From the NCBI GenBank assembly GCA_951406725.2, contig OX597824.1:19654001-19718000 (forward strand): a stretch of DNA of 64,000 nucleotides, given 5' to 3'. Both the position numbers and the translations under genes were made by a program. This stretch comes from Octopus vulgaris (Eukaryota). Position 1 is the stretch's first letter. Each line of letters opens with the position of its first letter. Shown here piece by piece: positions 5,895-31,323 of the stretch. The notes under the pieces are model-generated. The model searched no databases and had not been told where the DNA came from. It worked only from the letters and a program-made list of their open reading frames with translations.

Positions 5895-6111
5895 AAATAT
5901 CGCCATGTTGATTCGCTAGTTTCTGCACGCATTTTTTCTCTCTCCTTGTTTCTTTCCGTGTTTCTTTTCTGTGCATCTTTCTGTTGAAGAGCGTAGGCTC
6001 GAAACGTAAAAGACTTGTTTTATTTATATTCCAGAGCGCCATACTAATACAATTGTTTGTTTGTATTCCACCTGCCTTCGTCTTTTGTTTATTTTCATAA
6101 AGCTTCCCGTT
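5895..6111 (+). mobile_element. Short ORF-less PLE-type element (HHR family 1) between (TA)n tracts
   Basis: Near-identical copy at 31103-31323; contains a hammerhead-like fold at 5976-6013. Confidence 0.7.
5976..6013 (+). ncRNA. Minimal type I hammerhead-ribozyme-like motif (A6U core variant)
   Basis: TCTTT-CTGTTGA-A-GAGC gtag GCTC-GAA-ACGT-A-AAAGA: 5-bp stem I, 4-bp stem II, palindromic loopless stem III, GUA triplet. Confidence 0.62.
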
Positions 6112-8171
6112 ATATATATATATATATATATATATATATATATATATATATATATATGTATGTATATGTATATATATAAAGACAAATGCATATACGTACA
6201 CATAAACACCTACGAACACACATACATATTACACCTACGCGAATACTGACACACAAAGAATCACAGACACATACACATCCCCGATTTAATTCATGGTATT
6301 GACGATTTTATGTAAGTATAAAATGCGCGCGCACATGCGTGTGTGTGTGTGTGTGTGTGTGTGTGTATCCAAGAGTGTGCCTGTGTTTGATCGCCTGTAT
6401 AATGTGTGCGCACCTCATTTGCTTCTGCAGTTCGTATATTAAACGATCTAATCACGTCCACACGTGTATGGGTTTATGTATTCCCGTGTATGAGTGCGGT
6501 GTAAACTGATATACGTAGGTGAACGGGAGCAGTTATGTAATTTTTAGTGGGGTGTTTTTTTTTATGTGTATTTGTGTGTGTGAATGCATGTGTGTGTGTG
6601 TGTGTGTGTGTGTGCGTTTGTTGTGCATTGTATGTATTAATTATGTGCAAGCTTCACTGCACAGTAATAATTCTGGAAGTACGCATAAATATGAGCAACG
6701 AAACAAAACACAACGCACAAACACCTCCATATATACCAACACTATGTGTGTGTGTGTGTGAATGCGTGTATAGGTGTGTATATGTGAGTGTGTGTATGTA
6801 TATATATATGCACAGACATATGTACGTGCACATGTGTATATATATATATATATATATATATATATATATATATATATATATATATATATATATATATATA
6901 TGGGTGTGTTCTGTTACTATATATAAACATATATGTTATATGCAATTATATACATATACATATACATATAAATATATATATATATATATATATATATATA
7001 AAAGAAAAAAATGAATATATATATATATATATGAATATATATATATATATGTATATATATTTATATATATGCATTTATACACATATATATATATATATAT
7101 ATATATATATATATATACTTACACAAATACACACATATATATGTATATATATATATATATATATATATATACAAAAATACATATATATAATATACATATA
7201 TATGTATTTATATTTACATATATATATACATACATATATATATATATATATATATATATATATATATTATTTACATACGTATGTACATATATATTTGCAT
7301 AGTTATATGTACATGCATATATTTATATATGTATGCGTATTCATACGTATATGCATCTATTTATCTGTATATAAACATTTATATATACACACACACACAC
7401 ACACATATATATATATATATGTATGTATGTATATGTATATATATATATGCATATGCATATTCATAGGTACACATGCACTCATATACGCACAAACGTATAT
7501 ATATATATATATATATATATATATGTGTGTGTGTGTGTATCAATATGCATATATATACATATATACTTACATATCTGTATCTGTTTTTATACATATATGT
7601 ATGCACACACACACACACACAACACACACACACACACACACACACATATATATATGAAATTTACATATAACTATACTAAAACAGAAATAACACTTACACA
7701 CATTCTGTGATTCGATAACGCGCACGCGCACACACACATACACACACTGACACGCGCGCGCGCGCGCACGCAAACACGCCCAACACATCGCACTTCAACG
7801 CAAAAGTCATACACAGAAAAACGCTTCAAATCTCACACACAGAGCAGTAAACACACATACACACACACACACAGGTACACACACACATGTACACACACAC
7901 ACACACACAAAATGCATGTGCACATGCACACACCATCATGCAGGCAAGCTTGCAGACATTTTTACTTCAATCCTGTCTTAGTTGCAGAATGAATTTCCAA
8001 AAGACAGTGAGCCGTATTAAAAGTAAGATTTTGAAATGTCAAAATCGCCAGTTCCTTTAAAAGGAATTCTCACATAAGATTTCTTAAATTCCACTTCTTT
8101 TTTTACCATATTCTTATGTCTTTTAAAAATTCGTTTTATACTCGTTCTTTAAAGCGCAGAGAATTTACACG

Positions 8172-8411
8172 AAGTAGAAGAAGAAGAAGAAGAAGAAGAA
8201 GAAGAAGAAGAAGAAGAAGAAGAAGAAGAAGAAGAAGAAGAAGAAGAAGAGGAAGAAGAAGAAGAAGAAGAGGAGAAGAAGAAGAAGAAGAAGAAGAAGA
8301 AGAAGAAGAAGAAGAAGAAGAAGAAGTGGAAGAAGAAGAAGAAGAAGAAGAAGAAGAAGAAGAAGAAGAATAAGAAGAAGAATAAGAAGAAGAAGAAGAA
8401 GAAGAAGAAGA
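8172..8411. repeat. (GAA)n purine tract
   Basis: Directly visible. Confidence 0.95.
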
Positions 8412-8581
8412 TACCAGGCATTGCTAAATTGCAACCTTATTTTCTTTAAATTTTACCATTTCGTCATCTGGGAGGCGAAATTTCTTTAAAATCTACAGAA
8501 ATACGTCACAGCTTCATTGAAGCTAGAATTCTTCCCTTATTCCTGGTTTTACAGTCTATCGTTCACTGTCATCACTCATTT

Positions 8582-9440
8582 TCTCTCTCTCTCTCTCTCT
8601 CTCTCTCTCTCTCTCTCTCTCTACTCACCTCTTTCTTTCTCTCTTTTTCTCCCTCTTTTTCTCTCTTGCACTCTTCTTGACACCCCTCTCTCTCTCTCTC
8701 CCTATCTCCCTCTGTTTTTCGCTCTTGCTCTCTTCTTGTTCCCTCTCTATCACTCTCACCCTCTTTTTCTATCTTGTACTCGTCCTGCCACCTCTCTCTC
8801 TCTCTCTCTCTCTCTCTCACTCTCTCTCTCTCTCTCTGTCTCCCTCTTTTTCTCTCTTACACTCTTCTTGTTCTCTCTCTCTCTCTCTCTACCTATTTTC
8901 TCCCTTGCTCTCTCCCTGTTTTTCTTTCTTACTCTCTCCCTGTTCCGTCTCTCTCCCACTCTCCCTCCTTTTTCTCTCTTGCTTTTCTCTCCCTGTTCCG
9001 TCTCTCTCTCTCTTTCTCTCTCTCTCTTTCTCTCTCTCTCTTCTCTTCCTCTCCCTCCTTCTTTTTCTCTCTTGCTCTCTCCCTGTTCCCCCTCTCTCTG
9101 TCTCTCTCTTTCTCTCTCTATCTCTCTTGCTCTCTCCCTGTTTATTCTCTCTGTCTTTCTCTCTTACCCTTTTTCTCTCTGTCTCCCACTTTTTCCCTTG
9201 CACCCTCCCTCTTTCTCTCTCTCTTGCTTTCTCCCTCTTTCTCTCTCTCTTGCTTTCTCCCTCTTTCTCTCTCTCCTTCTCTTTCTCTCTACACTATTTC
9301 CGATTCTCACTTTCACCTCTCTCTTACCCTCACACGCTCTGTCTCTCTCTTTAGTATTTTTCTGAAATAACTCTTCTCTCTATATATCTCTCCCTCACCT
9401 TCTCCTCTATCTCTTTCTGTCTCTCCTCCTTATCTCTCTC
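8582..9440. repeat. (CT)n-derived polypyrimidine tract with recurring ctcttgctctctccctg sub-repeats
   Basis: Directly visible; ~860 bp of strongly pyrimidine-biased + strand. Confidence 0.9.
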
Positions 9441-29200: not shown

Positions 29201-29229
29201 ATTTATATAAACATATATATATATATCAG

Positions 29230-29777
29230 CGTGATCACCGTGACCGACCAGGCTATCAGATGTTGCTACACATCGCTGGTCACAATGCGCTTCGCATTGT
29301 TTTAGCCTTCAAATGATACCACCCCGCTGGCTAAGCGAGCAGGCCAACAGAAGAAAGAGTGAGGGAAAGTTGTGGCGAAAGAGTACAGCAGGGATCGCCA
29401 CCATCCCCTTCCGGAGCATCGTGGAGATTTAGGTTGTTTTCGTAAGAGAGTCCAGTTTGCTGGACATTGTTGTAGAGCTGAAAAAGAGGTAATTTCTACT
29501 CTTCTCCTCTGGAAGCCATCTACTCGCAATACCAGAGGGTGCACACTCTCCTACCCTGATGTAATCTCCAGGGATACAGGCATCCAGCAACAGGACCTCC
29601 GTAATGCCATGATGGACCGTGAAGTCTGGCGTAGCATGGTAAATTCCATTGTCTCGACCACGGTCAAACAAAACAAAATAAAATTGTTTTCGCTCAATAA
29701 ACACTCACAACACCTGGTCTGGGAATCGAAACCGCGATCCTACGACCACGAGTCCACTACCCTAACCACTGGGCCAT
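29230..29777 (-). mobile_element. tRNA-derived SINE family D interrupted by an RTE insertion
   Basis: Minus-strand head TGGCCCAGTGGTTAGG...GGTTTCGATTCCC; the body resumes across the insert. Confidence 0.8.
29443..29683 (+). mobile_element. RTE-clade LINE 3' fragment with TSD
   Basis: RVQFAGHCCRAEKEVISTLLLWKP...RG..LSYPDVISRD...AMMDREVWRSMV; A-rich tail; TSD TTGTTTTCG at 29434-29442 and 29684-29692. Confidence 0.85.
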
Positions 29778-31102
29778 ATATATATATATATATATATATA
29801 TATATACACTCACACACACACACACACACATATATATATATATATATATATATATATATATATATACACTCACACACACACACACATATATATATATATA
29901 TATATATATATATATATATATATATGTATGTATATATGTGTGTATGTATGTATGTATGTATATATATGTGTGTGTGTGTATAGGAGTTCTTTGATTTTTG
30001 TTACTGTATGACACACACACATACACACACGCATATACACGCAGATAGACACGCTCATATAAAGACACATACAAACTCACACACATACACACACACGCTC
30101 ACATATAAGTAAACATACACACACACACACACACACACAAACACATGGTCGCATATAGGCACGCACGCACACGCACACACACACACACACACACACGCTC
30201 TGATTGAGGGATTGGGAAGAAAAAACAGAGCGAAACCATTTGTAATAAGAGACAGAGAAAGAAAGAAAGAAAGAGAAAGAGATAGAGAGAGAGAGAGAGG
30301 GGAGAGAGATTAACTAACAATGTGAGTAACAAAGAGAGAAGAACAGAGAGACACAGAGCTTGGGAGGGAGGGAGGGAGGGAGAGAGAGAGGAGGAGGGAA
30401 AAGGGAGAGAGGTGCGAGTAATGATTCGTTGGGTAATTAGAGATAAGTCTTGTGTCTTTAACAGGAACATAACTGGTTTCATGCGTGATGCTACTGTGCT
30501 GGCAGTCAGGCATGCAGACACTGAGAGACTTAGAGAACTGGTTGGCTGGCTGGCTGGCTGGCTGGCTGGCTGGCTGGATGGATGGATGGATGGATGGATG
30601 GATGGATGGATGGATGGATGGATGGATGGCTATTACGTCGGAGGGCTGGTTGGTGCCGTAAATAGGTAGATGTAAGGTATGTATGGATGCATGCATAATT
30701 CTCACATGCATACAAGCATTTGATGGTTACAAGGGCAGAGGTATAATTTTAGGGATTTCGATAGATAGATAGATAGATAGATAGATAGATAGATAGATAG
30801 ATAGATAGATAGATAGATGGATAGAGATAGATAGATAGATAGATAGATAGATAGATAGATAGATAGATAGGTAGATAGATAGATAGATAGATAGATAGAT
30901 AGATAGATAGATAGATAGATAGATAGATTGATAGATAGATAGATAATAGAGATGGATAGATAGATAGATAGATAGATAGATAGATAGATAGATAGATAGA
31001 TAGATAGATAGATAGATAGATAGATAAATAGATAGATAGATAGATAGATAGATAGATAGATAGATAGATAGATAGATAGATAGATAGATAGATAGATAGA
31101 TA

Positions 31103-31323
31103 CGTCATGAACGCCATGGTAGATCGTCAGATCCCACACGCATTTTTTTTCTCTCCTTGTTTCTCTCCTTGTTTTTTTTTCTGTGTATCTTTCTGTCGAA
31201 GAGCGTAGGCTCGAAACGTAAAAGACTTGTTCTATTTCTATTCCTGAGCGCCATACTAATACATTTGTTTGTTTGTACTCCACCTGCCTTCGTCTTTTGT
31301 TTATTTTCGTAAACCTTCCCGTT
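31103..31323 (+). mobile_element. HHR family 1 element in (TAGA)n; hammerhead-like motif at 31188-31225
   Basis: TCTTT-CTGTCGA-A-GAGC gtag GCTC-GAA-ACGT-A-AAAGA; near-identical to 5895-6111. Confidence 0.7.

Follow-up and report, generated by a model that had tools for sequence, protein, structure and literature searches.

Penelope-like elements (PLEs) carry minimal type I hammerhead motifs, most copies of which are reported as solo and 'probably related to truncated PLEs' (Cervera & de la Pena 2014, PMC4209133), and the function of the hammerhead in these elements has been called unclear (Craig et al. 2021, PMC8557442). The present analysis concerns five short hammerhead-bearing repeats in a stretch of 64,000 nucleotides of Octopus vulgaris (GenBank assembly GCA_951406725.2, contig OX597824.1, positions 19,654,001 to 19,718,000 of the forward strand; hereafter the window), which belong to two main families and a sister family, F3, and which are, with near certainty, the pseudo-long terminal repeat (pLTR) ends of intact Neptune-type PLEs in the same genome. 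The catalytic core carries U for A at position 6 (A6U) in family 1 and C for U at position 4 (U4C) in much of family 2, the positions following the standard hammerhead numbering.

With the minimal hammerheads surveyed by Cervera & de la Pena, the octopus motifs share a short stem I, an extra nucleotide after A9, the G10.1-C11.1 pair, a loopless palindromic stem III, a position in both pLTRs and a mostly solo occurrence (PMC4209133). Fig. S3 of that survey includes an Acropora Neptune motif (CUGACGAA GGGC UAAC GCUC) that closely resembles family 2 in its U4 form. However, the rows of Fig. S3 all read CUGANGA or UUGANAA, with neither U6 nor C4, and the search descriptor required those cores, whereas A6U and U4C are found here in intact, very young autonomous elements. 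The endonuclease-positive (EN+) Neptune PLEs (Craig et al. 2021, PMC8557442) share with the octopus parents one open reading frame (ORF) leading from reverse transcriptase (RT) through a CX2-5CxxC linker to a C-terminal GIY-YIG nuclease, as well as partial-tandem pLTRs, inverted truncated copies, a tail and a bias for (TA)n; canonical hammerheads are called universal in these clades, whereas both lineages described here are non-canonical. In the Anolis Poseidon element (Frangieh et al. 2024, PMC11167929) the RT starts 85-92 nt past the cut, compared with a 3' end at about 105 nt here, and the AT-rich target is shared; the results given for that element include no RNA ends at the cut, as no DNA ends occur there in the octopus. 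In Anolis a canonical hammerhead shares sequence with the start of the ORF, while the octopus parents have theirs 420-730 nt upstream of the ATG.

Substitutions at the same two positions are described in a viroid (U4C) and in phage Bcep176 (A6C), both with slow but detectable activity (Perreault et al. 2011, PMC3088659); these variants are rare and occur in tertiary-stabilised ribozymes, none of those in the text consulted being in a high-copy PLE and A6U going unmentioned there. The animal non-LTR retrozymes (bioRxiv 10.64898/2026.07.22.740005) are likewise short and ORF-less, with a type I hammerhead and kinship to pLTRs, but form tandem arrays with a hammerhead in each unit, whereas the octopus copies are dispersed solos that continue into a coding parent: the window copies are single and kilobases apart, and the tandems encountered are whole PLE units of 4.5-6.2 kb or partial tandems. 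An octopus repeat annotation reports 30 recently active Penelope families, and the words hammerhead and ribozyme are absent from its main text; the parents may well be present in its repeat library. No intact PLE with A6U fixed came to light in the literature searched, which left out most subscription papers; for A6U the same literature gave one paper, on a twister, for U4C in hammerheads only PMC3088659 and, for octopus hammerheads, nothing on these families. Solo hammerhead-bearing PLE ends are already known, and the new components are A6U fixed in an intact, very young and abundant PLE, U4C in its sister, the constraint on the rest of the core and a sharp 5' boundary of the short copies.

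Window copies and their parent elements

The assembly comprises 2.8 Gb in 227 contigs, and the window is rich in microsatellites. Stretches fetched from the same genome are referred to by L-numbers. A relaxed minimal-hammerhead pattern with paired stems, which permitted A at position 5 so that the copy at 18406 was counted, matched the window at exactly the five places named in a preliminary description of this DNA (Table 1); in 100 two-base block shuffles it matched 0.04 times on average and never more than once. The assignment to the PLE-type minimal type I class is upheld by stems I and II, the extra base after A9, the G10.1-C11.1 pair, the palindrome at 15.2-16.2 and the NUH site, which are intact in four of the five copies. 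The two family-1 copies both have the CUGUYGA core ascribed to them, in the arrangement TCTTT-CUGUYGA-A-GAGC(GUAG)GCUC-GAA-ACGU-A-AAAGA. The copy at 18406 is decayed; its core reads CCAACGA and therefore G5 is lost, so that the C-N-G-N-N-G-A consensus proposed for all five elements applies to only four. Its stem I (TTTT/GAAC) also has a U.C mismatch, and the statement that stem I differs between the families yet stays paired is borne out by a C-G to G-C swap at the fourth pair but not by this copy. The division into two families stands for family 1 and for the family-2 copies at 9503 and 18406, but the copy at 14486 is only about 75% identical to family 2 and belongs to F3. In Rfam, neither of the two elements tested matched any hammerhead model (E<=10), and in a scan of the whole window the matches listed (150 of 862) were all microsatellite-driven miRNA.

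Table 1. Hammerhead-bearing repeats and PLE-derived features in the window (positions are those of the window).
Feature	Position	Strand	Remarks
Family-1 PLE solo pLTR end	5899..6111	+	within (TA)n; hammerhead 5976-6013; core CUGUUGA at 5981-5987 (A6U); predicted cut after 6008 (GUA)
Family-2 PLE solo pLTR end	9441..9636	+	hammerhead 9503-9537; core CCGACGA (U4C); 3-bp stem II; predicted cut after 9533 (GUU)
Sister family F3, shorter solo end	14385..14537	-	hammerhead 14486-14521 with C4; most F3 copies have U4
Internal RT fragment, family-1-type PLE	16403..17168	+	80% DNA identity to intact family-1 parent
Solo family-2 pLTR end, decayed hammerhead	18333..18536	+	hammerhead 18406-18440; G5A, mismatched stem I
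Third, distant PLE family, 5'-truncated copy	25001..26908	+	Cys linker and GIY-YIG; 3' untranslated region with TATA box (26479)
Third-family hammerhead-like end	~26817-26861	+	published U3-A8 type; G5 lost in this copy
Solo pLTR end, older family-1 subfamily	31104..31323	+	within (TAGA)n; hammerhead 31188-31225; core CUGUCGA (A6U); predicted cut after 31220

Longer elements elsewhere in the genome match three of the window copies. A long family-1 element (L258) has a pLTR 95.8% identical to the repeat at 5899..6111, which is 92% identical to the intact parent L242; the older repeat at 31104..31323 shows 85.6% identity to the intact family-1 parent and 89.5% to a 5'-extended copy (L208), and the family-2 repeat at 9441..9636 shows 97.4% identity to a 5'-extended copy (L289). 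The family-1 parent was reached with the window's internal RT fragment as query. A GIY-YIG search had first yielded a PLE of 781 aa, which was rejected as parent of the five since it has an end of its own, of the different U3-A8 type. Of the 20 long-ORF loci fetched, 19 have family 1 on the 3' side of a PLE ORF, and 12 have a full-core copy on the 5' side as well, with a tandem period of about 4.5 kb; CUGUUGA is present in all 16 parent loci whose core was read (L257-L260 not being among them). For family 2, upstream extension (327 exact matches) led to a degenerate pLTR-ORF-pLTR element, and its RT in turn to intact copies; in all 20 loci fetched the family flanks the ORF on at least one side, 19 having C4 and one U4 at both ends, with a tandem period of about 6.2 kb. 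The intact lineage of 1,008 codons is a diverged branch of family 2, with pLTRs 72-75% identical to the window copies, GUC at the cut site and a U.U mismatch in stem I, while family-2 ends of the window type flank the partly broken elements L291, L333 and L334; family 2 also flanks PLE ORFs in L316-L332.

The parent ORFs encode about 950-1,070 aa with RT and GIY-YIG regions. Among the eight ORFs compared for each parent, identities are 99.2-99.8% in family 1 and 99.4-99.9% in family 2; the two proteins are 60-62% identical to one another and 27-28% identical to that of a third PLE family, and all three have an RT, a CX4CXXC linker (CSRPRCRTC and CSRSRCNTC) and a C-terminal nuclease motif. The family-1 protein matches Pfam RVT_1 (E=1.8e-7) and has no match to Pfam GIY-YIG at 0.001; its GIY-YIG domain is inferred from the alignment of its IYC..LY(I/V)GQT region with the Pfam-positive domain of the third family. 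A partial-tandem pLTR-ORF-pLTR layout, 5' truncation, a tail and inverted copies, as in EN+ PLEs, were all found. The layout points to Neptune or Nematis, and the placement in Neptune would follow from the linker and the (TA)n target, although the linker is common to Nematis. The preliminary view of the repeats as non-autonomous, PLE- or retrozyme-like units is not sustained, the same sequence flanking intact RT-GIY-YIG ORFs as a pLTR; the contrary possibility, raised at the same time, that they are only truncated PLE ends, is what was found as regards origin. Downstream of the nuclease, the family-1 ORF (L242:6300-6565; L241-L256) reads through a C/T-rich stretch whose length varies, so that near-identical copies differ in the length of their Pro/Ser/Leu-rich tail. 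Nested inverted pairs of truncated pLTR copies (L088:8690-9322, L185, L279, L117, L021), a structure described for PLE insertions, would form double-stranded RNA if transcribed.

Core variants and constraint on the motif

Families 1 and 2 are related, with about 70% DNA identity. Core states were examined in unascertained copies, i.e. copies not selected by their core, taken from the window, from forty blind-chosen stretches of 10 kb, from a further 110 kb of a dense region and from other loci in which they happened to lie close by. U6 is present in 36 of 38 such family-1 copies and C4 in 16 of 22 family-2 copies, whereas four of the five distinct F3 copies (five of six rows, one being a duplicate) have U4; the C4 of the copy at 14486 is therefore private or minor. 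Exact-pattern counts over the genome gave, for the family-1-type core, 17,886 with U6 against 309 with A6 (58 to 1), the latter including F3 copies, and, for family 2, 8,037 with C4 against 3,076 with U4; some of these U4 copies may be CpG reversions of C4, in which case 3,076 overstates the old U4 subfamilies. The blind-chosen stretches (400 kb) contain 11 family-1, 9 family-2 and 2 F3 pieces, which points, roughly, to tens of thousands of copies for each of the two main families.

The canonical core, CUGANGA (or UUGANAA), is absent from most copies of families 1 and 2 and present in older family-2 subfamilies and in F3. In a tree of 262 copies, which is midpoint-rooted and weak within family 2, U4 occurs on longer-branched family-2 clusters and C4 on the youngest; C4 is likely derived, because family 1 and F3 have U4. 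A6U is fixed in family 1, and U4C marks the younger part of family 2. C4 had been described as fixed in the family, which fits the window copies but not the unascertained sample or the genome-wide U4 count. A small family-1 cluster with A6 (CUGAGGA) represents either retention or reversion, and L317, an intact family-2 element of the youngest type with canonical U4 in both pLTRs, is a natural revertant and a ready control. Since the intact parents themselves carry the variant cores, the variants were amplified rather than acquired by decay, as originally proposed; the copy counts together with the cores of the intact parents rule out decay as the origin of A6U, and of U4C in young family 2, and decay is accepted for the altered core of the copy at 18406.

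Constraint on the remainder of the motif was examined by parsimony on 94 family-1 and 118 family-2/F3 copies, the 50 core-selected copies being left out and a change shared by three or more copies being counted as lineage-level. Columns without lineage-level change make up 23 of 28 inside the motif against 87 of 159 outside in family 1 (p=0.007), and 20 of 27 against 65 of 166 in family 2 (p=0.001), while private changes in family 2 are level (2.7 per column inside, 2.9 outside). The positions that change repeatedly are N7 (four times in family 1) and H17 (three and four times, among A, U and C but never G), along with loop II, position 4 and the 3' strand of stem I in family 2. Variable N7 and H17 within an otherwise constrained motif is the hammerhead pattern. 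The sole compensatory change seen is the C-G versus G-C exchange at the fourth stem I pair between families 1 and 2; stem II is nearly invariant and lacks covariation, and the covariation sought in the stems thus amounts to this one swap. A splice-acceptor account of A6U, in which U6 and A7 together would read ...CUGUAG, was dropped as N7 varies freely. Separately, a CCUGAGCG motif common to families 1, 2 and F3 lies about 25-30 nt past the cut (6035-6040, 9559-9564 and 31246-31251 in the window; also L242 and L316) and varies little from one lineage to the next; base pairing between its UGAGC and G12 plus the 3' strand of stem II is conceivable, and it is possibly a switch or a protein site.

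Ends of the short copies and neighbouring repeats

The 3' end of the short copies is fixed at about 103-106 nt beyond the predicted cut. TA repeats adjoin it in 68 of 76 unascertained copies, and a few copies continue into the 5' leader of the parent, corresponding to the PLE tail. The 5' ends were placed relative to the cut in 73 copies (77 unascertained rows less two self-hits, one low-complexity match and one duplicate), of which 64 are solo rather than long copies. Nine begin beyond -146, none between -146 and -116, 39 between -115 and -80, 17 between -79 and -20 (several of these being alignment ends in diverged subfamilies), two at -18 and -12, none between -11 and +25, and six between +26 and +42. 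Among core-selected family-2 copies 26 of 31 begin at -110..-95, and among those selected by an upstream 25-mer eight of 29 begin at -125..-121. A sharp 5' wall is thus present about 110-125 nt before the cut site. In family-2 parents a TATAAAA or TTTGAAA box is found at about -150, which places it 30 nt upstream of the wall at -125..-121. The cut site itself is not favoured as a 5' end, for genome-wide TA-joined family-2 starts were found at 26 places at the cut as against 62 at a control position 26 nt downstream (37 and 83 rows, respectively, before removal of double counts). Cut RNA thus leaves no footprint, which fits uncut RNA as the template and is no proof that cleavage is absent.

For the Drosophila Penelope element, a transcript start at 371, within the pLTR (PMC2377424), and a hammerhead at 496 (PMC4209133, Table S1) are reported; the spacing is similar to that in the octopus, if both papers use the same clone. 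From this start position and the internal RT start of the Anolis element, we infer that the solos are run-off complementary DNAs (cDNAs) extending from an internal RT start to the 5' end of the RNA. Such a run-off from the start site is fairly probable, and stalling of the RT at RNA structure is a possible alternative source of the wall. Transcription would start at the wall, inside the pLTR; the RT would start internally about 105 nt past the hammerhead, as in the Anolis PLE, and run off the 5' end to give a cDNA of about 215 nt, which the GIY-YIG nuclease would insert into AT repeats, while longer or full copies would result if the repeat copied from were the downstream one in a tandem transcript. 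The template in this scheme would be uncut RNA, so that a slower ribozyme would cost little and may leave more template.

Other hammerhead-like repeats occur in and beyond the window. The copy of a third PLE family at 25001..26908 is absent from the preliminary description; the family (L191-L201), of which many copies are intact, has the 781-aa frame, a TATA box and CCAAT and TGACGTC boxes, both repeated, and in its youngest copies G.U replaces the G10.1-C11.1 pair. With a GT donor at 26567 and a polypyrimidine-AG acceptor at 26827-26828, it may have an intron that ends inside the hammerhead core. A further abundant minimal-hammerhead family (L040:1235(+), L002:949(-), L090:2051(-), L094:1253(+)) has a mostly canonical core, CUGAUGA, with a long stem II and GAAACGU, and a short hammerhead-like repeat with a degenerate core, ending CGAAAC(A/G)U amid TA repeats, occurs at ~63470-63540 (+) of the window and in L039:3106.

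Catalysis, alternatives and significance

The explanation favoured here, with moderate confidence, is that the short units are 5'-truncated pLTRs of two intact PLEs with an inherited, attenuated and probably protein-assisted hammerhead. The A6U and U4C cores are predicted to cleave slowly: in a type III hammerhead all single and double mutants of the CUGA turn had low activity except a C3-G8 swap (PMC9901934), and dimers of minimal motifs cleave weakly even when the core is canonical (PMC4209133). The hammerhead of the Anolis PLE cleaves only when its own protein is present, and insertion in vitro does not depend on the hammerhead (PMC11167929). On such grounds, the odds of attenuated, likely protein-assisted cleavage appear about even. 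Full activity of A6U and U4C, with efficient dimer cleavage through the ACGU palindrome, would suit the conservation of every other core position and the cleavage of minimal PLE hammerheads as dimers (PMC4209133; review PMC6765202), but it is decidedly improbable, as no second change other than the C3-G8 swap rescues CUGA-turn mutants in the type III ribozyme, canonical minimal motifs are themselves poor cleavers and no compensating change is evident here.

Several points weigh against an inherited, attenuated ribozyme and the scheme of copying attached to it. The cleavage and the transcript with its start site are predictions from sequence; family-1 parents lack a TATA box at the expected distance; the cut-site test has one control position and covers family 2 only, and cut RNA with a 5'-OH might simply escape copying. 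The parsimony tree is built on short sequences with many near-identical copies and is midpoint-rooted, the columns outside the motif include T-runs difficult to align, and private (terminal) changes in family 1 are also somewhat lower inside the motif (1.9 versus 2.7 per column). Folding predictions give rod-shaped monomers with the core paired to ACGU and place the hammerhead dimer 8-23 kcal/mol higher than the best dimer structure, in a model that ignores non-canonical core contacts; folding z-scores are unremarkable (-0.1 to -1.4), the decayed copy excepted. The youngest family-2 parent combines U4C with the stem I U.U mismatch, which fits a loss of catalysis.

The rod-like folds, the mismatch of the youngest parent and the missing footprint at the cut site would all be expected of a motif of the same origin that is catalytically dead and kept as a docking fold for the RT-endonuclease, and so would the persistence of A6U through every family-1 subfamily turnover. 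In the Anolis system insertion in vitro is unaffected by hammerhead mutants (PMC11167929), and Naiad PLEs are reported to spread without canonical hammerheads (PMC8557442). Such a pseudo-ribozyme deserves serious attention, although we hold it to be doubtful: G5, G8, G12, A13, A14 and the palindrome stay constant whereas N7 and H17 do not, with G avoided at H17, which is the pattern of a catalytic fold, and the free variation of N7 in family 1 argues against selection on the rod pairing. Moreover, the minimal insertion RNA of Anolis lies in the 5' part of the ORF and core mutants still insert (PMC11167929), so that an intact core is unnecessary for binding in that element. It is rather unlikely that the hammerhead of these lineages has ceased to act as a ribozyme on its own, A6U having been fixed at the base of family 1 and the fold, catalytic guanines included, retained since then only as an RNA module bound by the element's own RT-endonuclease, which would either permit it to cut or dock on it; if so, the tens of thousands of solos of about 215 nt would record the transcription start and the internal RT start.

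The unit-like length, the sharp wall and the excess of solos over long copies also raise the possibility that the ~215-nt units propagate themselves as well, as non-autonomous elements resembling short interspersed nuclear elements (SINEs) or retrozymes, with an internal promoter and borrowed PLE protein; the Drosophila Penelope pLTR does hold an internal promoter (PMC2377424), and retrozymes are reported as pLTR-derived (bioRxiv 10.64898/2026.07.22.740005). This is quite unlikely, since solo and extended copies interleave in the 262-copy tree, the subgroup of the copy at 9503 includes one (L033) extending about 200 nt into the parent's 3' untranslated region, no head-to-tail monomer arrays were found near the five copies or in the matches of the 400-kb random sample, and the TATA-like boxes of family 2 lie upstream of the wall, outside the solos.

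Two autonomous lineages, each more than 99% identical internally, thus carry core changes expected to be impairing while the rest of the motif is constrained and canonical sisters reside in the same genome, and they provide natural matched pairs of RNA and protein for comparing catalysis with binding. Descriptors built on CUGANGA miss entire high-copy PLE families, whose solos are open to mis-filing as SINEs. A weakened ribozyme probably does not prevent such PLEs from reaching tens of thousands of copies.

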